From the NCBI GenBank assembly GCA_013336275.1, contig JAAXUA010000003.1:66698-130697 (forward strand): DNA of 64,000 nucleotides. The letters run 5' to 3'. The first letter of the stretch is position 1; each line of letters starts with the position of its first letter. The DNA is from Candidatus Falkowbacteria bacterium. GTDB taxonomy: Bacteria; Patescibacteriota; Patescibacteriia; Patescibacteriales; GWE2-39-37. The position numbers and the translations under genes were made by a program. Shown here in pieces: positions 45,347 through 58,666 of the stretch. The notes under the pieces were generated by a model, which did no database searches, was not told where the DNA came from, and worked only from the letters and a program-made list of their open reading frames with translations.

Positions 45347-46273
45347 TTATTTTTTATAGAATTTTGCCGCTTCTTCAGGCGAGACGGAATTAATAATCAA
45401 TCCGGAACTTATCTCAATGCCCGCCCAGACGGAGTCTCGCGGCTGAAGCTTAAGATAAAAATGCTGGTTAGGCTCAGAAATCGCTTGCTGGGTAAAAAAA
45501 TTATATGGGATGCCTAGGATGTGCAGTTTTATCAAAGCTCTTTTTAGGGCATAGGCCAATGATTTTATTTCAGCCTGATTAAGATCGGTCATATTGTCTA
45601 TGTGCCTTTTTGTCATGAACCATAGTTCATAGTGATATTCGCTGGCATAGGGTGCGAAAACAAATAGCTGGTTGTCTTCATAGACCAATCGCTTGCTTCG
45701 AGACTCCTTTTTGATGATATCGCAATAAGGGCAGGTGCCGTGCTCGCTTTTGTAGCGCTCAGCTTCAGACATTTCGGTTATCAGCAAAGGGGGTAGGATT
45801 TTGGTGGCAAATACTTGGGAGTGTGAATGTGCTAGCGAGGCGCCAGCCTTTGAGCCGCTGTTTTTAAAAATCAAGATGTAATCGAGTTTCTTGTTTTTGC
45901 TCAAAACAGTTATGCGGCTTCGATATGTTTGCAAGACTTTTTCAAGCTGGGTTAGAGAAAATTCATGCATTTCTTTTCCGTGTTCGGGAGTCTCGACGAT
46001 AACCTCTTGTGTGCCAAACGCTTTAGGGTTGCTGGTGGTTACGGCCGGGTACTTGTTTTTAAGTACCATAACTTCCCAAGCCTTCTGGCCACCGACCGCG
46101 TCGATGATTAATTTTTTTTCAATCCCCTCTGGACAAAGTCCGCACTTGACGTCCTTGTGAATAACCGAGCTTTCGCGGACATCTCGTGGACGCTTTGCGC
46201 GCCCCGGGGTGATGATTACATACTTGTCTAGAAAATAGTCTTTGCGAATTTCGGAGGAAGGTTTGATTATCAT
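45347..46273 (-). CDS. GalT-type (HIT superfamily) hexose-1-phosphate nucleotidyltransferase
   Basis: N-terminal Zn site CGLCPEG and active-site SLAHSHSQVFA (HxHxQ). The ATG at 46273 is preferred because the track start at 46315 lies inside a 23-bp hairpin arm. Confidence 0.7.
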   Translation of the reverse strand: MIIKPSSEIRKDYFLDKYVIITPGRAKRPRDVRESSVIHKDVKCGLCPEGIEKKLIIDAVGGQKAWEVMVLKNKYPAVTTSNPKAFGTQEVIVETPEHGKEMHEFSLTQLEKVLQTYRSRITVLSKNKKLDYILIFKNSGSKAGASLAHSHSQVFATKILPPLLITEMSEAERYKSEHGTCPYCDIIKKESRSKRLVYEDNQLFVFAPYASEYHYELWFMTKRHIDNMTDLNQAEIKSLAYALKRALIKLHILGIPYNFFTQQAISEPNQHFYLKLQPRDSVWAGIEISSGLIINSVSPEEAAKFYKK

Positions 46274-46312
46274 TTCTTTTGGTTTGAGTTTAATATTATC
46301 AGTATAGCAAAA

Positions 46313-46365
46313 CATCGCCCAACAAAAAAACAGCGAGGCTGCCGCTGTTTTTTTGTTGGGCGATG
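46313..46365 (-). terminator. 23-bp perfect inverted repeat (terminator after copA)
   Basis: CATCGCCCAACAAAAAAACAGCG-AGGCTGC-CGCTGTTTTTTTGTTGGGCGATG, verified base by base. Confidence 0.65.
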
Positions 46366-46370
46366 TAAGC

Positions 46371-49300
46371 TTATTTTTTTAGGACGAAACCTTGGCCCAC
46401 ATAATGCATCGAATCAAGAGCGGTTTGGGTTTCAGGCAGAATGCCAGCTACAATAATGTTATTACCGAAAAAGTTATCTATGGTATCGCCTGGCTTAGTG
46501 ATCAGTTTTGCTCTGATCATCATCTCGGCTTCAGAGCTGCCGACGTATATGGGCAGGAACTTCGTTTCACCTAGGGCGACTTCGTCAAAGCCTTTGATTG
46601 AAGTTTTTAATTTCTCTGGCGTGTTAGTCGCATTTACGAAGTAGAAGTTTTTGGTAATATCCTTTTCTGCCACAATCTTGATTTCGGCCGAATTGGTCAT
46701 ATTCAACAAAGTTTTGCCATTAACGAAATGGTAGTCATCGATTAGTGTGCCGGTCGGTTCTATGATGCCGACGATCTTGACGCTGGACAGGCCGAAGAAA
46801 TCCTTCAGTGAGTCGCCAGGGCCTTGGATCAACTTTTCCTCTTTCATCATCATGGCCTCTTTATAGCCGATGACCATTTCGTAATCACCTAAAGCCAAGG
46901 TGCCAGCGTTGGCCTTGAGGCTGCCGGGCAGGCTTTCGGCACCGAGGAATAGTTTTGGATTGCCTTCGGCGAAATTGATCTTAGTCTGGCCATTGGCCAA
47001 GAAGGTGTTCAAGGTGGTGGCGGTTTCAATGGAAACCGTTTTGTTCATCCCCTGGTTTTCCATGCCGGAACTGAATTTAGCGAACTCGAAGAAACCGAAG
47101 GTGAAGACGATGACCATTATCAGTGGCGCGACGAGCGAGGCATAGTTGCGCTTGCCGGGCCGGAAGTAGCGCAGTAACAAGGAGTTGGTAACCACGGAAA
47201 TCGAACTCATGGCCATGGCTAGGCCAGCCAGCTCGGGCTTGAGAATCAAGCCGAAACCGGCGAAGATGCGGGCTGCAATCGGGATGCCGATGACGTTGTA
47301 GAAGAGGGCGAAAAACATATTTTGCTTGATCTTGCCCATGGTTTCGCGGGCCAGCTCGAGAGAGGTGACAACGTCGTTCAGGTCGTTTTTCATGATGACG
47401 ATGCCGCCGGTTTCCATGGCCACGTCAGTGCCGGACCCCATGGCGATGCCCAGGTTGGCTTGGGCAAGGGCGGGGGCATCATTGATGCCATCGCCGACCA
47501 TGGCGACGCGCTTTCCGGTGTCCTGTAATTTTTTGACTTCATTAGCCTTGTCTTCGGGCAAAACCTCGGCCAAGACGTTGGTAATGCCGACTTCTCGGGC
47601 AATCGCTTGAGCGGTGCGCTGGTTGTCGCCGGTAATCATGTAGACTTCGATGCCCATGGCTTTGAGGCTGCTTATGGCCGCAGCAGTGGTTGGCTTGACC
47701 GTATCAGCTACGGCGATGGCACCGAGGATGGACTCTTTGGTGGCCAATATCATGGCAGTCTTACCTTGCTCCTCCAACTTGGCCAGTTTGCGATTAATCT
47801 TGTCGATTGGGTGGCCCAAGGTTTCGCTCACTAGCTTGCGATTGCCGAAGTAATAAACTGTGCCATTGATCGTGCCTTGGACGCCGTGTCCGGGGATGGC
47901 GGTGAAATCAAGGACTTCGTCGAGGCCGAAGTCTTCTTCTTGGGCGTGGGTGTAGATCGCTTCGGCCAAGGGATGTTCGGATAATTTTTCCAGACTGGCA
48001 GCGATAGTGAGCACCTCATCTTCGTCCAGATTGGCGAAATTCAAGACGTCGGTTACTTCCGGCTTGCCCTTGGTCAGGGTGCCGGTCTTGTCAAAGATGA
48101 CGGTATTTATCTTGCAGGCCGCCTCCAGCGGTTCGCCGCCCTTGATCAAGATGCCATATTCAGCACCTTTGCCGGTACCGACCATCAATGAAGTTGGGGT
48201 GGCTAGGCCAAGGGCGCAGGGGCAAGCAATGACGATAACTGCGGTAAAGGCCATGAGGGCGAAGGTGAGGGTCGAGCCGAGCAGGAAATACCAGACGCCG
48301 AAGGTGATGATGGCGATGCCGATGACGGCTGGGACGAACCAGGCAGAAATGCGGTCAGCCATATTTTGAATCGGCGCCTTAGACCCTTGGGCGTCTTCGA
48401 TCAGGCGGATGATTTGGGCCAAAGCGGTTTCGGAGCCGATGCGGGTGGCCTCGAATTCGAAGCTGCCAACCTTATTGACGGTACCCCCGATAACCGAGTC
48501 GCCAATATGCTTTTCGACCGGCAAGCTTTCACCGGTAATCATGGATTCGTCGATGGCTGAACCGCCCTTGGTAATCTTGCCGTCAACCGGCACTTTCTCG
48601 CCCGGACGCACCATAATGATGTCGCCATGGACCACTTCTTCGACCGGGATGTCCATGGTTTGGCCGTTGCGGATGACGCGGGCGGTTTTGGCTGACAAGT
48701 CCATCAGCTTCTTGATGGCGTCAGAGGTTTTGCCCTTGGTGCGGATTTCTAGCCACTTGCCCAAGATTACGAAGGTGATCAGGAAGGCGGCCGTTTCGAA
48801 GTATAAATCCGGAATCTTGCCATTAAGCCCGATAAGCGAGCGGGTGTTAAAGTAATATATGGCATAGTTGGCCAAGCTGTAGATGAAGGCGGTCGAAGTG
48901 CCGATGGCAATCAGGCTGTCCATGTTGAAGGTCTTCATCTTGAGCGAGGACCACATGCCCTTGTAGAAGCCAGCACCGATAACTAGCTGGATCGGTAGGG
49001 TGAAGAGCAGCGAGATGATGCCGATGTAGGGCGATAAGGCGATCTTGCCTGGGAGCCAAGCGAAGAAATCCAAAAACATGAAGTACAGCATGGGCAAGCT
49101 CAGGACGAAGCTGACCCAGAATCTGGTCTTGTAGGAGACAATCTCTTTCTCACGCTTTTTGCTTTCGTATTCGCTGTCCTTGGCGTCGACCTCTTCGGCT
49201 TTGTAGCCAGCTTTTTCCACGGCCTTGATGAGAGCTTGAAGGTTGGTGGAGGCCTCGTCGAAAACCACCGAAGCTTTTTCGGCAGCGAAATTGACGTTGG

Positions 49301-49949
49301 CCTGCTTGACGCCAGGAACTTTTTTGAGTGAGCGTTCGATCAGACCGGCGCAAGAAGAACAGTGCATGCCGTAAAGAGAGATGTTGGCTCGCTTGGCGTG
49401 GTTGGTCTGTGACATTGCGGATTCCATGACGGGGGCGGACACTTGCCTGGGCTCAGCCGACTTTGAGCCGCTTAAAAGCGAATCGAACAGACCCGCCAAG
49501 CTGGCGGTATTGCTTAGTTGATCGACAAATTCTTTAGCCCCTGGCTGATTGTCCGGAACGCTGAACTCGGCAAGCTTGTTGTTGTGGATCTTGCCTTCGA
49601 AGTAGGGTTTGCCGTCACTGCCGGAAAGGACGCGACCTTCGGCCTCGATGTTAGCTTCGAGCTTGATTTTCAGCGGTTGGCCATTTGATGTCTGGTTCTT
49701 TTTGATGGCCACACCCTTTTCGGCTGCCGGCAAATCGATAATAACTGCCTGGTAGCCAGCTCTCTCCACGGCAGCTAACACCTCATCTGTTGAAGTCAGA
49801 GAGGTGTCCAGCTCTAAGCTGGCTCGACCGGTTTTATGGTCAATGCTGATATTTGATACCCCGGCCAGTTCTTCAAGTTCAGCCGCGGTGATTTTTTCAC
49901 AGGATGCGCAATGCATGCCTGTAATCGATATCTTGATCGGTTGTTTCAT
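46371..49949 (-). CDS. copA: Heavy-metal (Cu-type) P1B ATPase with two N-terminal HMA domains and a 256-aa C-terminal extension
   Basis: GMHCASCE and [11 protein letters not shown] motifs, TGES, CPC ([11 protein letters not shown]), DKTGTLT and GDGINDAP. An extra TM helix and duplicated module follow the core. Confidence 0.92.
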
Positions 49950-49953
49950 AGGG

Positions 49954-50157
49954 CTATTTAATTGAGTAATCGGTACCGCTTAATGCGGCTTGTGCCTCTT
50001 TGATTTCGATCGGGCGCTCAGCCGTAATGGCAGTGTCGCCCGTTACAGGGTCAACAACCACGTTACTGACTCCTGGAATTTTTGCCAGCTTCATGGTGCA
50101 AAGCTTAGCACAAGCACTACAAGTTAGTCCTTGTATTGAAAACGATAAGGTGTTTAT
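49954..50157 (-). CDS. CopZ-like HMA (metal chaperone) domain ORF without a canonical start codon; not in the supplied ORF track
   Basis: Hand translation gives (I)[66 protein letters not shown]. It is in frame with, and 3 codons after, the TAA of the upstream gene. Its TAG lies 4 nt before the copA ATG. Confidence 0.5.
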
Positions 50158-50166
50158 ATGAGTAAG

Positions 50167-52002
50167 TTAATTAACAGTAATGTGTCCTCGGACCATGCCC
50201 ATGGCGCAGGTGATCTGGTAGGTGCCGGGTTCGGTGGGGGTGAACTTCATGGTGATTTTTTTGCCAGCCTCAAGAAGCTGCAGGTCTTCTGCAAGATCGG
50301 ATACCTTAATATAGTTCATGCAACCGGCGCCATCTTCTTGGGCGTCGATCTCGAAGCGGACTGGCTTGCCTGCCTTGACGGTAAATTCGCTCGGCTGAAT
50401 GTCGGTAGCTTGGGTATAAACGGTTTTGATGACCTGCTCATCAGTGGCTGCGTCGTTTGTCGTTATGGCAGGCTTGGCGTCGATCGGAGCGGTTTTTTTG
50501 CCGCCACAACCACAACCGCCGCCAGAGGAACCGCAAGAGCCGCCGCCATTGATTGCCGTAGCCGAGTCGTCAGCAGCGGCATTGGCCGAGGGGGCTTTTG
50601 AAGAAGAGGAGTCAACCACATTAAAGCTGCCAGTGTACATTCCCATAGAGCAGGAAAATTTGATAGTACCGGCATTTTCGGGCGTGAATTCTATGACATT
50701 GGGACCGGCCTTAAGCGTTCTGCTGATGTTGAGCTGGCGCACGACCAAGGCGCTGGCGCACGAATAGGGGGCCTGGGCGTCAATTTCCCAGCGCACGGGC
50801 ACTCCTGCCTTGATGGTAAAACGGTTCGGTTCGTATCCTCGATTCGTTTCGGTCATACTGACAACCTGGACCCCGTTTACCATTTTTACGTTGGGGTCGC
50901 TTGTGACAACGTCCCGAGAAGAGGCACTAGCCAGATCGGGAACCCAGCCCAGCAGTGTTAAGCCATTTTTCAGGTTGAACAATGAAAGCAGAACCACAAT
51001 CGTTCCGGCGAACTTGAAAAACTTTTTAGCCGACCCGCCCTTGAAGATCGAGGTAAGTCCACCCACCCCCAAAAGTCCAGGCGCGGTGCCTAGTGCGAAC
51101 AAGCCCATTATCAATGCTCCGTCACCTATGTTTCCGCTGGAAACCGCATAGAGCTGCATTGCCTGCGTAAACCCGCACGGCAAAAAGAAAGTGGCGGCAC
51201 CAAGAATCATTGAGTTCTTGTGGCTATACTCTTTGTTTTTCGAGTCAATCCCCAATTTTTTGGCCAGTCCTTTCGGTAGGGTTAATTTGACCGTGTTGAG
51301 TTTTGGTATCAATTCGGTAAGTTGTAAGCCCATAAGCAGCATGACCAGACCCACCAATACGGTAAGGAAGGCGCTGAGCTCTAGGGAAAGCTGGAAGGCT
51401 GACCCCAAGAGTCCTAAAAGGCCGCCAAAAAAGGCGTAGCCAAGTACCCGCCCCCCGTTAAAGTAGAGGTGTGGACGAAATTTTTGCTTAGAAGTCGCTT
51501 CTGGATGATTTTCAGAAAACTTGGCCGACATCCCGAGGGTCAATCCGCCAACCAGGGCCATGCAGGTTGAAAATCCGGCTACAAGCCCTACTAAAATGAC
51601 AACTCCAAGGCCCGATGGGTTGTCGGACGCACCGATATTCATGTCGGTTAGGCCGAAGAACTTCAAAATGCCGTAAATCAAGAAGGCAAGAAGCAGCGAT
51701 TTAATGACGGTTTGGTAGTCTTCCTTGTTAGTGCTGAACCAAGCTGTTTTTTCTGCTTGGCCGATAGAGTAGCCTGCCTCGTGGATGGCTTTTTCTAGTT
51801 TGTGGATTTGAGGCGAAGAATTTTCCTCAAAAAAGATATCAGCCTTTCCGGCTTTGAAACTTATTTCGGTTTTTTTTACATCCTCGACTGCCGAGAGCTT
51901 CTCTTCAAGCAAGAGTTCGCAGGATCGGCAATGCATGCCATTGATCGGCAACGTAATTTTGTGTAATTCGTTCATAGTTAAGTCAGTTAATGAAATAAAC
52001 AA
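50167..52002 (-). CDS. HMA domain + TauE/SafE-like (DsbD_2-type) polytopic membrane core + two cupredoxin-like Cys/Met domains
   Basis: N-terminal GMHCRSCE, about 6-7 TM helices, and two C-terminal repeats (YSCASALVV..FSCSMGMYTGSF and AGCMNYIKV..ITCAMGMVRGHI) separated by a Gly/Ser/Cys linker. Confidence 0.7.
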   Translation of the reverse strand: MFISLTDLTMNELHKITLPINGMHCRSCELLLEEKLSAVEDVKKTEISFKAGKADIFFEENSSPQIHKLEKAIHEAGYSIGQAEKTAWFSTNKEDYQTVIKSLLLAFLIYGILKFFGLTDMNIGASDNPSGLGVVILVGLVAGFSTCMALVGGLTLGMSAKFSENHPEATSKQKFRPHLYFNGGRVLGYAFFGGLLGLLGSAFQLSLELSAFLTVLVGLVMLLMGLQLTELIPKLNTVKLTLPKGLAKKLGIDSKNKEYSHKNSMILGAATFFLPCGFTQAMQLYAVSSGNIGDGALIMGLFALGTAPGLLGVGGLTSIFKGGSAKKFFKFAGTIVVLLSLFNLKNGLTLLGWVPDLASASSRDVVTSDPNVKMVNGVQVVSMTETNRGYEPNRFTIKAGVPVRWEIDAQAPYSCASALVVRQLNISRTLKAGPNVIEFTPENAGTIKFSCSMGMYTGSFNVVDSSSSKAPSANAAADDSATAINGGGSCGSSGGGCGCGGKKTAPIDAKPAITTNDAATDEQVIKTVYTQATDIQPSEFTVKAGKPVRFEIDAQEDGAGCMNYIKVSDLAEDLQLLEAGKKITMKFTPTEPGTYQITCAMGMVRGHITVN

Positions 52003-52035
52003 GCAGGCAAAAATGCCCGTTTAACTGAATCAACC

Positions 52036-52425
52036 CTAGATTCTTAATATGATGGTGTCGAGCGCGACCTGATTTGGTGGCGCCTGGAAGCTTTTTGGCT
52101 TCAAGGTCTCCTTGTCCGCCAACGGAACTTGGCTAAAGTACAAGGAAAAGAGATAAAGTGATTTGTTGAATTCAAAAACTGCAAGCAATGGCGCGGCGTC
52201 GCTGCTTTTCTTGTCGGCACAGCAAGGTAAAATATCCTTTTGCGCCCCGTTTTTCTTTTCGGCGCCGGCATTTTCATGAGCGTGGCAAGCTCCATGGATA
52301 TCATCCGTGGCCAGAGCGGGATCGATATTCATGAGAAAGGCGTGGAAAAAATTCGCCATAATCAAACCGAGAATGACGGAAATCATCCCGATGTGGTGCA
52401 AATTTTTTAGAATCCGCCTAGTCAT
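52036..52425 (-). CDS. Small membrane-anchored His/Cys-rich protein (hypothetical metal-binding)
   Basis: One TM helix, then HGACHAHE and LPCC motifs. Its start abuts the csoR stop with no gap (52425/52426). Confidence 0.45.
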   Translation of the reverse strand: MTRRILKNLHHIGMISVILGLIMANFFHAFLMNIDPALATDDIHGACHAHENAGAEKKNGAQKDILPCCADKKSSDAAPLLAVFEFNKSLYLFSLYFSQVPLADKETLKPKSFQAPPNQVALDTIILRI

Positions 52426-52695
52426 TCAGTTGAATTTCTTATAAACCTCTAAAAGCTCGGCTATCGTTTGCTGTTCGCGATTCCCCTTGATAGCATTTAC
52501 CACGCAGGTTTTGAGGTGGTTCGAAAGCAGCACCTCCTCAGCTTTTTTGATAGCTCCTCGGACGGCCGATGCTTGCTGTATCACGTCGAGACAATAAGCA
52601 TCTTGTTCGATCATTTTGATGATCTTGTTCAGATGGCCGGCAGTGATTTTAAGCCTTCTGGTAGCATCTTTCTTGGCGCAGGAAATTGGTGTCAT
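52426..52695 (-). CDS. csoR: CsoR/RcnR family metal-sensing repressor
   Basis: RLKITAGHLNKIIKMIEQDAYCLDVIQQASAVRGAI...HLKTCV (Cys-His-Cys ligand pattern). The ATG at 52695 is preferred over the track start at 52749. Confidence 0.88.
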   Translation of the reverse strand: MTPISCAKKDATRRLKITAGHLNKIIKMIEQDAYCLDVIQQASAVRGAIKKAEEVLLSNHLKTCVVNAIKGNREQQTIAELLEVYKKFN

Positions 52696-52704
52696 AGTTT
52701 TCTG

Positions 52705-52727
52705 ATTACCCTCCCCAGGGGGGTAAT
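52705..52727. promoter_or_regulatory. CsoR-type operator: ATTACCC-TCCCCAGGGG-GGTAAT G/C-tract palindrome
   Basis: An imperfect palindrome lies 10 nt upstream of the csoR ATG. A TATATT -10-like hexamer (52731-52736, minus strand) sits just upstream of it. Confidence 0.6.
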
Positions 52728-52765
52728 CTAAATATAGCGCTTGTGCCATGTGGTGTCAAGAAAAT

Positions 52766-52795
52766 AAAAAGGCGGCCTCTAGGGCCGCCTTTTTA
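52766..52795 (-). terminator. Terminator after the DsbA-like gene
   Basis: GGCGGCC-TCTAG-GGCCGCC with flanking A and T runs. Confidence 0.7.
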
Positions 52796-52808
52796 TTTTT
52801 TAAGAGGA

Positions 52809-53552
52809 TTATTTCAATTCGGCTTTGATCATGCCTTCAATTGTCGAGTATGGCACAGCGCCAGGGATGGATTTTCCATTAATGAAACTGCCAGGAGTTC
52901 CCCTTACTCCCAGACCCTGGCCTTCTTGCAAGTCCGCGCTTACCTTGGCGGCCATTTTACCAGAAGACAAACAGGCGTCGAATTTGCCAGTGTTAAGTCC
53001 GAGCTCTTTTGCAGCGGTCGCTAGGTATTCAGCGCTTAGACTGCTTTGATTGGCGTAAAGCTTGTCGGTGTACTCCCAGAACTTGCCTTGCTCGCCAGCG
53101 CACTCAGTCGCCTCGGCCGCTTTTCTGGCCATCGGATGGATGGAGTCAAGCGGGAAGTGGCGAAAGATCCAGCGCACGTCCTTTGAATAATTTTTCATGA
53201 CCTGAAGCATGGTATCGTGGTAGCGGGTACAGAAAGGGCACTGGATGTCGGAATATTCAACGATGGTTATTTTGGCATTCTTATTGCCGCGAATGTGGTC
53301 GTCCTTGGCAATCTTGATATCGACCTTAGCGCCAGCATCTGCGCTTGGCTGCGCTTTTGCGCCGGAGTCGTCATTCTTGACGATTGGAGCGGGGTCGTCA
53401 CTACCGGCATCGAAACTGCCGTCAGAAAATTGGGCTTTCAGATAAAGGCCCAAAAACAGCAAGAAGCCTATAAAGGAGATGGCGGCAGCGCCACTCACCA
53501 AACCGAGAATGAAGCTGGTTTTTGAACGGATGAGTTTTTCTTGGCCTAACAT
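52809..53552 (-). CDS. Membrane-anchored DsbA-family thiol:disulfide oxidoreductase
   Basis: N-terminal TM helix, a low-complexity linker, and a thioredoxin fold with CPFC. Confidence 0.8.
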   Translation of the reverse strand: MLGQEKLIRSKTSFILGLVSGAAAISFIGFLLFLGLYLKAQFSDGSFDAGSDDPAPIVKNDDSGAKAQPSADAGAKVDIKIAKDDHIRGNKNAKITIVEYSDIQCPFCTRYHDTMLQVMKNYSKDVRWIFRHFPLDSIHPMARKAAEATECAGEQGKFWEYTDKLYANQSSLSAEYLATAAKELGLNTGKFDACLSSGKMAAKVSADLQEGQGLGVRGTPGSFINGKSIPGAVPYSTIEGMIKAELK

Positions 53553-57262: not shown

Positions 57263-58666
57263 TTAGAGGAATAAAGAGTAGATCGTCGCGAGTCCGGCCA
57301 ATACCATCAGGCTGACAACCGCCCAGCCTAGAAATTTATTAATGCCGCCATTGGCATGCTTGCCCATGACCTTTTTATTGCTGCTTATGATGACGATTGG
57401 CGCTAAAACCATCGGCGCCACCAGGCCGTTGGCGACAGCTGAATAAATCAAGGCCTTGATCGGATCGAGGTCGATAAAGTTTAGTGCTAAGCCGACAAAA
57501 ACCGAGATGATGATGACGCCGTAGAATGCCTGGGCGCGGTCCAGCTTGTTATATAGACCTTCCCGCCAGCGGAAGCTTTCAGAGAGAGCATAAGCGACCG
57601 AGCCAGCAAGGACTGGTATGGCCAATAGTCCGGTGCCGATGATGCCTAGCGTAAAAAGGAGGTAGGCGTTATCACCGGCCAAGGGCTTTAGGGCGGCGGC
57701 TGCATCGGCCGCGGTGTTGATGTTGGTGATGCCGCTAGCGAACAGAGTTGCCGAACAGGTAGCGATGATAAAGAACATGACCAGATTGGACAGGAACATG
57801 CCCGACCAGATATCGAGCCTCATCTCTTTGACTTCTTGGTCAGTGGCACCGACACGGTCCTTGATGCGCGTTTTGCCTTGAAGAATCTCTTCTTCGACTT
57901 CTTGGGAGGTCTGCCAAAAGAACAGGTATGGCGAAATGGTTGTTCCGAGGACACCGGTTATCAAAATGATCGATTCTTTGTCCCAGGAAAAAGTCGGCAT
58001 GAAAGTCGACTTCAAGACATCCAGCCAGTTGATTTCGACAAGCATGGCCGTAAAAACATAGGATAAGAGAATCAGTGCCAGCCACTTGAGGTAGCGGGCA
58101 TATTTTTGGTAGGTGGTGAATATTTGTAACCCCAGGGTCAGGCCAGCAAAGGCGAAAACCAATAATCCGAAATTCAGCTCTGGCAGCAAGAGTTGGGTGG
58201 CTTTAGCCATGGCACCTAGGTCGGCGCCGATATTGAAGGTATTGGCGGCAAAAAGCAGGGTCGTCGCAGTATAAAGTACCCAGGGCGGCAAAAATTGTTT
58301 GATATTTGAAGCCAATCCGCGGCCCGTAACCAGTCCGATTCGCGCGCACATCTCTTGGGCGACAGCCATCAAAGGAAAAGTGAATGTAGCCAGCCAAAGC
58401 CATTGGAAGCCATAACGGGCACCCGCCTGGGAGTAGGTGGCAATTCCTGAAGGATCATCATCAGCCGCTCCGGTTGTCAGACCTGGGCCGAGCAAGTGCC
58501 AATACTCAGCCGCTTTTTTTATCGGCTTCTGGTTCGCAAAAATAGAAGCGACTTTTTTTGATCCGTCGATAGTTTTTTCCAAAATGATGGCCGGTTCTTC
58601 AGCGATTCTTTCAACGAGCGGACGTGAGCGGACGATTCTTTTTTTCTTTGTTTCTGATTTTCCCAT
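57263..58666 (-). CDS. NRAMP-family divalent metal cation transporter
   Basis: LGPGLTTGAADDDPSGIATYSQAGA motif and about 11 TM helices. Confidence 0.8.
   Translation of the reverse strand: MGKSETKKKRIVRSRPLVERIAEEPAIILEKTIDGSKKVASIFANQKPIKKAAEYWHLLGPGLTTGAADDDPSGIATYSQAGARYGFQWLWLATFTFPLMAVAQEMCARIGLVTGRGLASNIKQFLPPWVLYTATTLLFAANTFNIGADLGAMAKATQLLLPELNFGLLVFAFAGLTLGLQIFTTYQKYARYLKWLALILLSYVFTAMLVEINWLDVLKSTFMPTFSWDKESIILITGVLGTTISPYLFFWQTSQEVEEEILQGKTRIKDRVGATDQEVKEMRLDIWSGMFLSNLVMFFIIATCSATLFASGITNINTAADAAAALKPLAGDNAYLLFTLGIIGTGLLAIPVLAGSVAYALSESFRWREGLYNKLDRAQAFYGVIIISVFVGLALNFIDLDPIKALIYSAVANGLVAPMVLAPIVIISSNKKVMGKHANGGINKFLGWAVVSLMVLAGLATIYSLFL

Follow-up and report, generated by a model that had tools for sequence, protein, structure and literature searches.

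A probable CsoR-type copper operon of Candidatus Falkowbacteria and its candidate extracytoplasmic Cu(I)-binding modules

Copper efflux operons of the CsoR-CopZ-CopA type, exemplified by B. subtilis copZA, M. tuberculosis cso and S. aureus copAZ/copXL, combine a repressor with a Cys-His-Cys ligand set, a G/C palindrome at the promoter, and a gene for an HMA chaperone adjoining that of a P1B-1 ATPase. The same elements occur in a 64,000-nt stretch of DNA from a groundwater-dwelling Candidatus Falkowbacteria bacterium (GCA_013336275.1, contig JAAXUA010000003.1, positions 66,698-130,697 of the forward strand; hereafter the window), in which the minus strand between 46371 and 52749 carries five consecutive co-directional open reading frames (ORFs) in the order csoR-pcc-fusion-copZ-copA. 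This locus, the cop operon, differs from the described operons in that csoR leads, and in that two further genes stand between csoR and copZ: one for a small Cys/His protein, here called PCC, and one for a fusion of an HMA domain, a DsbD_2 membrane core and two cupredoxin domains. It also differs in its CopA, which carries a ninth transmembrane helix and a predicted outer domain. The regulator, the chaperone and the pump itself belong to known families and are ordinary representatives of them; the three accessory modules are lineage-wide and uncharacterised in the open-access literature. The best combined explanation, to which we assign a probability of roughly 0.6, is that a CsoR-derepressed efflux operon is joined here to an extracytoplasmic Cu(I)-handling branch. 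Sequence and comparative evidence make it highly probable that the locus is a Cu(I)-responsive, CsoR-repressed cop efflux operon with CopZ-like and CopA functions; the outer Cu(I)-capture layer and the relay through the fusion protein are proposed more tentatively.

Three other described systems bear directly on the accessory modules. CupA of S. pneumoniae is a single-domain protein described as a chaperone of the cytoplasmic face and as restricted to a few streptococci (PMC7558416); CupA and the N-terminal domain of its partner CopA (4F2E, 2MRY, 4F2F) share with the fusion protein a cupredoxin fold and four Cu(I) ligands, C...C-x-M-x-M. However, CupA has one N-terminal helix and works with a cupredoxin-type CopA domain, whereas here two copies follow seven helices and are predicted to lie outside the cell, and the window CopA has ordinary HMA domains instead. 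A second parallel is CopL of S. aureus (copXL/copBL), a lipoprotein of the cell surface for which a role in binding Cu outside the cell and preventing its re-uptake has been proposed (PMC10233261). It too would bind copper on the outer side of a bacterium with one membrane, is under CsoR control and has its gene beside that of a copper ATPase, but its fold is unrelated, and it is a free-standing lipoprotein that lacks both a transmembrane core and a cytoplasmic domain. Finally, a computational study (Hobbs et al. 2016, PMC4938975) predicted that CsoR controls HMA-DsbD_2(-DUF2318) proteins (COG2836) in gut Firmicutes. These resemble the window protein in the fusion of HMA to DsbD_2 and in predicted CsoR control, and differ in their C-terminal partner, which is DUF2318 there and a pair of CupA-type cupredoxins here; no experimental characterisation of them was found in the open-access literature. 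Searches of open-access papers for a copper system of Patescibacteria, for a protein that joins a TauE/DsbD_2 core to a cupredoxin, or for a C-terminal outer domain on CopA returned nothing specific, and the fusion, PCC and CopA tail families carry only generic database labels.

Operon layout, probable operator and conserved gene order

All five frames recognised in a first-pass annotation of the window are present, separated in order by 0, 33 (60 with the ATG start of the fusion gene), 9 and 4 nt. The sequence TTGACA-17-TATATT is the top-scoring promoter-like site within 46200-53000. The G/C-tract palindrome that had been placed beside its -10 hexamer is real, with arms that are 91% complementary; it lies directly downstream of the -10 and abuts it (Table 1). 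In the form TACCC-N5-13-GGGTA it is the single occurrence in the 64-kb window, against 0.10 expected. The hairpin reported to close the operon was also recovered, although its stem is a perfect 24 bp and not 23 bp. Short spacing, one promoter, one strong terminator and synteny together suggest that the five genes are co-transcribed.

The mechanically called csoR ORF has 107 aa (52426-52749) and contains both promoter and operator within it; the start of the gene is therefore most likely the ATG at 52695. Its product matches Pfam PF02583 with 84.1 bits (cutoff 22.8; E 9.2e-24), and the RicR, FrmR and RcnR models all score below their cutoffs on it. Cu(I)-sensing CsoR proteins are defined by an x-C-H-C fingerprint with Tyr and Glu as second-shell residues; the translation reads DAYC...NHLKTC...E at +16, that is, Y-C...H-x3-C...E. 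Profile match and ligand pattern thus agree with the earlier assignment of the regulator to the CsoR family.

Comparative counts here and below refer to the best 80 of at least 589 loci that encode a relative of the fusion protein in a scan of one genome per species; genes were scored with our own profiles. Of 32 csoR genes in related loci, 15 have an ACCC-N5-13-GGGT motif in the 120 nt that precede them; background density predicts 0.17 sites, so that the motif is enriched approximately 90-fold. This conservation supports the proposal that the palindrome is probably a CsoR-type operator. It is similar to the S. aureus CsoR site ATACCctggGTGGGTAT (PMC10233261). In the Kerfeldbacteria loci L001 and L002, csoR lies elsewhere in the genome and is preceded by an operator-type site, while a separate TATACCCTATAGGGGTAT site stands 64 nt ahead of the first gene of the operon, which is of the PCC type.

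The genes keep their order in related loci and are not scattered. A copA gene follows the fusion gene within 3.5 kb in 64/64 loci with enough flanking sequence to be informative, with a separate small HMA ORF between the two in 54 of them; csoR lies within 1.2 kb upstream of the fusion gene in 23/76, and the flanks of the window operon are shared with L003, L007 and L090. That the genes are chance neighbours or decaying, and form no functional unit, seems extremely improbable. The small HMA gene has lost its ATG (see below) and there is a weak internal hairpin, both of which would fit such decay; but order and orientation are kept in all the informative loci, across many Patescibacteria classes, which already contradicts it, and all other frames are intact, with invariant ligand residues.

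A database search with the fusion protein returned 5415 hits; the top 120 share a length of about 600 aa, and nearly all of them contain HMA, DsbD_2 and Cupredoxin_1 domains. The best 80 loci come from Falkow-, Moran-, Roizman-, Levy-, Gottesman-, Davies-, Berkel-, Peregrini-, Andersen-, WWE3- and Saccharimonadia-type genomes. The architecture is therefore common in the Patescibacteria lineage and no oddity of this genome, and the description of these fusions as unusual is not borne out. The host itself is a Patescibacterium (Parcubacteria/Patescibacteria group). A single membrane and a reduced metabolism, in line with the first-pass annotation, are reasonable expectations for such an organism. 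Many TPA_asm contigs of metagenome-assembled genomes (MAGs) labelled 'uncultured Gammaproteobacteria', 'Bdellovibrionales' or 'Pseudomonadales' carry the Patescibacteria-type locus at 50-54% identity (L009, L013, L017-L019, L022, L033, L040, L044, L045, L058, L059, L066, L075, L078, L083); these labels look unreliable.

The fusion protein

The fusion ORF has 611 aa from a TTG at 52002, or 602 aa from the ATG used in the NCBI record; the 602-aa protein is 100% identical to HGA34_03400 of a Candidatus Falkowbacteria MAG. Pfam Cupredoxin_1 (PF13473) matches it at 2.3e-25 over two stretches. Cupredoxin 1 matches S. pneumoniae CupA (2mry/4f2e) at 6e-10 and the cupredoxin domain of its CopA at 2e-9 in phmmer searches, and in the AlphaFold model of the fusion protein a cupredoxin domain superposes on 4F2E with a template modelling (TM) score of 0.88 and a root-mean-square deviation of 1.2 A, at 31% identity. 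The CupA ligands C74, C111, M113 and M115, which form its binuclear Cu(I) site, align in both cupredoxins of the window protein. Among homologs these ligands are invariant except for the last Met of domain 2; C552, C590 and M592 of that domain are invariant in 59 homologs. The linker between the two domains is disordered in the AlphaFold2 (AF2) model and contains a near-invariant GGxCG...GGCGCGG, with C481, C488 and C490 conserved in at least 90%. The cupredoxin-like domains of the first-pass annotation accordingly stand up in profile, sequence and fold comparisons, and are specifically CupA-like.

The AF2 model of the whole protein (predicted local distance difference test score, pLDDT, 77) has seven long helices, one after the HMA domain and six in the core. 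Counts of Lys plus Arg per loop across the 59 homologs are 2.7, 5.9 and 1.4 for the inner loops and 0.1, 0.2 and 0.0 for the outer ones, and the HMA domain has no signal sequence. The seven helices and this positive-inside pattern predict that the HMA domain lies inside the cell and that both cupredoxins and the Cys-rich linker lie outside, which agrees with the extracytoplasmic position originally suggested for the cupredoxins. In the HMA domain, residues M14, H15, C16 and C19 are invariant in the 59 homologs.

The membrane core had been read as TauE/SafE-like, and NCBI and the Joint Genome Institute label relatives of the protein 'sulfite exporter TauE/SafE family'. In the strict sense this reading fails: Pfam TauE (PF01925) is not among the hits at E<=0.01, and the core instead matches DsbD_2 (PF13386) with 115 bits (cutoff 24.9; E 4.7e-33). 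The match to DsbD_TM (PF02683), the family of CcdA and DsbD, reaches 21.1 bits, below the cutoff of 27.1. The core has no sequence homolog in PDB, and a Foldseek search of the whole model was dominated by cupredoxins and says nothing about the core. Invariant in the 59 homologs are C138 (STCMAL, TM1; helix 123-156 of the AF2 model), C267 (LPCGFTQAMQ, TM4; helix 252-280) and H169, and at least 90% of these homologs retain H157 and H252. Each of the two invariant membrane Cys has Met or Gln beside it, and the cytoplasmic loops contain conserved His. The proposed Cu(I) ligands of the fusion protein are thus all invariant or nearly so.

Two types of described system suggest what such a core might do. 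The MerP-MerT-MerA relay (with its N-terminal HMA domain on MerA) and MerTP fusions couple an HMA domain to membrane Cys and hand a thiophilic metal across the membrane, as is proposed here; there is no homology beyond HMA, however, and the proposed direction is outward and the metal Cu(I). CcdA, DsbD, ScsB and the Scs system share with the window locus a membrane core that looks related (DsbD_2, with a weak DsbD_TM match), one conserved Cys in each of two helices, a copper-stress link and a DsbA-like neighbour, but the window fusion lacks their thioredoxin-like domains and has a cytoplasmic HMA domain and outer cupredoxins in their place. On the latter model, the DsbD_2 core would be a CcdA/ScsB-like electron conduit that keeps the outer Cys of both cupredoxins, the CGCG linker and PCC reduced; the reduced Cys could bind Cu(I) exported by CopA, and Cu-catalysed disulfides would be repaired. 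We regard this main alternative as rather unlikely, though only slightly less probable than a metal relay, and several observations fit it. There is one invariant Cys in each of TM1 and TM4, as in CcdA and DsbD. The copper-induced ScsB-ScsC pair, in which ScsC binds Cu(I), provides a precedent (PMC10907172, PMC3322552, PMC8900818). Added to the DsbD_2 match and the sub-threshold DsbD_TM match is a DsbD_TM score that passes the cutoff in a Clostridial relative, L087 (36.7 vs 27.1). A DsbA-like gene adjoins the operon here, is found directly upstream in 13/76 loci and lies within 8 kb in 27/80, and a TlpA-like gene is found near the Tsukamurella homolog described below.

Against electron transfer, the cytoplasmic partner of the core is an HMA domain with GMxCxxC and has no thioredoxin fold, and the fused outer domains are Cu(I) binders and not thioredoxin-like oxidoreductases. 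We favour, with limited confidence, the reading in which the DsbD_2 core passes Cu(I) on from the HMA domain to the outer ones, because every fused module is a Cu(I) binder, because the Met/Gln beside both membrane Cys and the conserved His of the cytoplasmic loops resemble metal ligands, and because in one locus, L006, the same place is taken by a Met-rich, non-DsbD membrane protein that again has two Cys, an arrangement better suited to the passage of a metal than to disulfide exchange. The LysE superfamily, to which DsbD-type cores belong, also includes the metal exporters CadD and RcnA, and RcnA is controlled by the CsoR-family repressor RcnR.

Locus L006 (4192-8870) is a split version of the system. 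It encodes, in order, copZ, the HMA-fused Met-rich membrane protein, a signal-anchored CupA-like protein that ends in GGGCGCGG (the same tail as the fusion linker) and a 39-aa ORF. These are followed by a homolog of the CopA tail on a gene of its own, which overlaps the start of copA at its stop codon, and by copA itself, here coding for a short protein of 715 aa. The occurrence of the parts as separate genes suggests that each module is functionally linked to CopA. In another locus, L004, an FtrD-like (DUF2318) gene follows the fusion gene.

Cultured Clostridia and Actinobacteria have simpler versions with a single cupredoxin, encoded beside P-type ATPases; one of these organisms is Acetoanaerobium noterae, a Clostridium in which an HMA-DsbD_2-cupredoxin gene lies directly upstream of copA. 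A plasmid of Tsukamurella tyrosinosolvens (L088, NZ_LR134469.1, 43685-54293) carries a mixed metal island with a single-cupredoxin DsbD_2 homolog, in the order MerR-type regulator, P-type ATPase, DsbD_2-cupredoxin, HMA protein, merA, multicopper oxidase, with the TlpA-like gene nearby. The DsbD_2-cupredoxin family may thus not be copper-specific, and the window system itself might handle another thiophilic metal (Hg(II), Ag(I) or Au(I)) in the manner of MerT/MerP, and not copper. The setting of the Tsukamurella gene, with a P-type ATPase on one side and on the other an HMA gene that merA follows, together with the MerR-type regulator, would be in keeping with this, as would the matches of the NCBIfam MerTP and MerP models to the HMA domains. 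These matches, however, are to the HMA part only and fall far short of the cutoffs (MerTP_fusion 39.8 vs 180; MerP 33.3 vs 92.6), merA and merR are not present at the window locus, and the C-H-C pattern of the regulator, the P1B-1 motifs of the ATPase and the CupA Cu(I) ligands of the outer domains all point to copper. We consider a different metal very unlikely; Ag(I) is a likely co-substrate, so that in this respect the two readings overlap.

The extended CopA, the small HMA gene and the PCC protein

The copA ORF has 1192 aa (46371-49949). Its product scores 632.5 bits against TIGR01511 (cutoff 397) and 665.9 against TIGR01525 (cutoff 346), and 701 against the E. coli CopA equivalog NF007952, below the cutoff of 1316. 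P1B-1 ATPases carry the signature motifs CPC-x6-P, N-x6-YN-x4-P and M-x2-SS-x5-N; the translation shows all three, as well as DKTGT. The two HMA domains lie at aa 4-70 and 190-253. Between them, at aa ~71-189 (window 49191-49740), is a strand-rich-looking stretch of ~115 residues with no family match.

The eight-helix architecture that ends in the cytoplasm does not describe this protein, which runs ~260 residues beyond the end of all solved CopA chains and adds a further helix and a domain of ~220 aa. The extension noted earlier is thus real, and can now be specified as a ninth helix and a tandem domain predicted to be outside; the pump is still a CopA, enlarged by one module, and not one of another kind. 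An AlphaFold model of the extension, built with 27 homologs, has a pLDDT of 89.6 and shows one long helix followed by two similar alpha/beta repeats, each with the pattern E-A-x-M-M...GD...FFG...vvGIL..TgT..D..H. In this extension, M215, T245, D250 and H253 are invariant and M106, T137, D142 and H145 nearly so. The placement of the ninth helix predicts that the tail lies outside the cell.

The tail has no sequence homolog in PDB. The best folds retrieved by Foldseek are the outer domains of MacB, YbbP, LolC/E and HrtB, and these matches are weak (E 2.6e-3 to 0.1, TM ~0.27). PF12704 (MacB_PCD) gives no hit on the window tail, and among its 27 relatives it gives two, at E 5e-4 to 0.045 and below the cutoff. 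The MacB, LolC-E, FtsX and HrtB outer domains, which are thus the best structural matches despite their weakness, share with the tail an arrangement of one helix followed by an outer alpha/beta domain. They differ in that the CopA tail consists of tandem half-size repeats fused to a P-type ATPase, and in that the protein ends after the domain, with neither the FtsX four-helix domain after it nor an ABC ATPase. Presence of the tail in other loci was scored with a profile built on the soluble part only. A stand-alone origin of the tail was considered and set aside: most short hits are CopA fragments on short contigs or in frameshifted assemblies (e.g. L004), and L006 contains the only convincing separate gene. 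In some relatives (L001:13248-15842 and L004:1-479), genes for a second csoR-controlled P-type ATPase (691 aa, no HMA) and for a MacB_PCD/FtsX permease adjoin the copper cluster, which is worth recording in view of the weak MacB-like fold of the tail.

The small HMA gene upstream of copA encodes the HMA profile and the GxxCxxC motif attributed to it, but its ATG start has been lost. The frame has no ATG, GTG or TTG before the CxxC; in 68/69 relatives an ATG stands 11-15 codons before the first Cys, and here the codon is ATA (50157-50155). Aligned with this codon, the nearest relative, L090, has ATG; the ATA recurs in a second assembly of the window organism (L089). The start codon may have been lost, translation may begin weakly at AUA, or ribosomes may re-initiate 9 nt beyond the upstream stop. 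Read-through of the stop codon of the fusion gene into the in-frame HMA frame was rejected as an explanation; the nearest relative has a frame-breaking indel and an ATG of its own.

PCC has a basic N-terminus, one hydrophobic helix, a possible ALA|T cleavage site, HGACHAHE, an invariant LPCC, and a C-terminus of the form PP-x5-LDTIILRI. The basic N-terminus followed by a single hydrophobic helix suggests that the Cys/His part is exposed outside. The protein has no Pfam, NCBIfam or PDB profile match, and a HMMER profile run against 1.84 billion representatives found 7 hits only, because overall identity in the family is only ~20%. Judged by position and pattern, a PCC-type protein of 97-187 aa is encoded directly upstream of the fusion gene in 33/80 genome loci; these counterparts share the N-terminal helix, an invariant Cys-Cys (mostly LPCC) and a C-terminus of PP-x5-8-hydrophobic-[RK][ILE]. 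The presence of PCC does not correlate with that of the CopA tail (7/23 vs 15/26). PacL (DUF1490), a partner of mycobacterial P1B-ATPases, is likewise a small single-helix protein with a metal-binding motif encoded just upstream of a metal ATPase (PMC13460109), but PCC does not match DUF1490, most of it is predicted to lie outside the cell and not in the cytoplasm, and it has Cys-Cys instead of a His-rich tail. Nine loci (L014, L023, L026, L027, L030, L033, L038, L072, L081) have a different membrane protein of 123-146 aa in place of PCC, with Cys motifs near the N-terminal helix (CPF...CPM in Falkowbacteria-type members) and a C-terminus of GILHP[KR][IVL][YH]; two members tested gave no Pfam match.

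Table 1. Features of the cop locus in window coordinates, with the basis for each.
Feature	Position	Strand	Basis
Promoter: -35 TTGACA 52759-52754, 17-nt spacer, -10 TATATT 52736-52731	52731..52759	-	11/12 consensus matches; predicted
Operator-like G/C-tract palindrome GATTACCCTCC-N3-GGGGGGTAATC	52704..52728	.	11-nt arms 52704-52714 and 52718-52728
csoR, 89 aa from ATG 52695	52426..52695	-	PF02583 match
pcc (PCC protein), 129 aa	52036..52425	-	identical to HGA34_03405
Weak hairpin and T-rich tail between pcc and fusion gene	51996..52023	-	6-10 bp stem
Fusion protein, 602 aa from ATG 51975: HMA-TM0-DsbD_2 core-CupA-like 1-Cys-rich linker-CupA-like 2	50167..51975	-	Pfam, AF2
Fusion aa 5-70, HMA domain with GMHCRSCE, predicted cytoplasmic	51766..51963	-	Pfam HMA 2.6e-10
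Fusion aa 84-341, TM0 and six-helix DsbD_2 core	50953..51726	-	Pfam DsbD_2, AF2
Fusion aa 360-455, CupA-type cupredoxin 1 (C406, C442-S-M444-G-M446), predicted extracytoplasmic	50611..50898	-	phmmer, Foldseek
Fusion aa 472-492, Cys-rich linker GGSCGSSGGGCGCGG	50500..50562	-	homolog conservation
Fusion aa 505-602, CupA-type cupredoxin 2 (C552, C590-A-M592-G-M)	50170..50463	-	CupA match 1.7e-3
copZ-like HMA gene, 67 codons, GLTCSAC	49954..50157	-	HMA 1.9e-9, 38.2 bits vs cutoff 24.8
CopA aa 1-930, two HMA domains and P1B-1 core	47160..49949	-	Pfam, NCBIfam
Ninth transmembrane helix, CopA aa ~936-964	47058..47144	-	helix 7-35 of extension model
Extracytoplasmic tandem domain, CopA aa ~973-1192	46374..47033	-	AlphaFold extension model; location predicted
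Terminator hairpin	46312..46366	-	perfect 24-bp stem, 7-nt loop

Directly upstream of the cop operon (window 52809-53552) lies the gene for the membrane-anchored DsbA-like protein, which has a CPFC motif. It is closed by a 17-bp hairpin of its own (52761-52799), with A- and T-runs on both sides, which ends 2 nt upstream of the cop -35; the gene is therefore a transcription unit separate from the cop operon. Some 5 kb upstream of the operon is a gene for a metal importer of the Nramp family (L089:1310-2713, about window 57263-58666), as there is in L090; together with the cop operon it may form a small metal-homeostasis neighbourhood.

Proposed mechanism and implications

We propose that at low Cu(I) CsoR would sit on the palindrome abutting the -10 hexamer and block transcription, and that binding of Cu(I) at its Cys-His-Cys site would derepress csoR-pcc-fusion-copZ-copA. 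The CopZ-like HMA protein and the two N-terminal HMA domains of CopA would then feed Cu(I) to the P1B-1 ATPase for export. The exported Cu(I) would not simply be released: Cu(I) sites on the outer face, namely the two CupA-type binuclear Cys/Met sites, the CGCG linker, the Cys-Cys/His PCC and the Met/His/Asp tail of CopA, might capture it at the exit of the pump and hinder its re-entry, much as has been put forward for CopL of staphylococci (PMC10233261). The fusion protein would constitute a second, ATP-independent route, in which Cu(I) passes from the cytoplasmic HMA domain by way of the cytoplasmic His and the two membrane Cys to the protein's own outer cupredoxins, in effect the MerP-MerT-NmerA logic run outward.

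Several points weigh against this explanation. The closest characterised proteins to the core, CcdA, DsbD and ScsB, move electrons and not metals, and no energy coupling for Cu(I) export is evident in the fusion route. The similarity of the CopA tail to MacB outer domains is weak, so that 'MacB-PCD-like' is a lead and not a classification, and its metal ligands are putative, proposed from conservation alone. Among 59 loci the tail has two repeats in 16 and one in 9 and is absent from 34, and PCC is absent in more than half of the 80 related loci; neither, therefore, is essential to the core system. With its ATA start, the copZ-like gene may be poorly expressed in this strain or not at all. Finally, the weak hairpin between pcc and the fusion gene could attenuate read-through, or could mean nothing; hairpin-like matches as weak as this one are frequent in shuffled sequence (16 found vs 9.1 expected).

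The variability of the add-ons also bears on whether the accessory proteins might serve copper supply, with CopA and the outer CupA-like domains metallating extracytoplasmic cuproproteins in the manner of CcoI/CopA2-type ATPases. The outer domains do resemble chaperones, and ATPases of the CopA2 type that feed cuproenzymes are known (PMC8475189). NirK-type or blue-copper proteins, which are reported in some genomes of the candidate phyla radiation, would be possible clients. The supply role seems quite unlikely to us. A CsoR-repressed promoter would be on at high Cu(I), which fits detoxification; the conserved cluster contains no cuproenzyme gene across the 80 loci; and the CopA tail and PCC are variable add-ons.

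A more far-reaching form of the efflux reading can be put forward as speculation that we ourselves consider doubtful. In this form, Patescibacteria, and in simpler versions some Clostridia and Actinobacteria, would possess a complete and undescribed chain for handing Cu(I) across a single membrane. One part would be an ATP-independent, Cys/Met-lined DsbD_2 permease that passes Cu(I) from its own HMA domain to its own outward CupA-type domains; the other would be a CopA whose MacB-like outer domain mechanically couples the pump cycle to the hand-off of Cu(I) to the CupA-type domains and PCC.

The canonical CsoR-CopZ-CopA scheme is silent on the fate of Cu(I) after it leaves a single-membrane cell, and a lineage of very small genomes keeps ~6.4 kb for this operon. 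If the outer sites do receive Cu(I), they would define an extracytoplasmic copper-handling layer for monoderm bacteria, and CupA-type chemistry would extend far beyond streptococci and to the other side of the membrane. The fusion protein would also allow one to test directly whether metals or electrons pass through DsbD_2-type cores, a question made experimentally approachable by the cultured Acetoanaerobium noterae, with its simpler gene upstream of copA.

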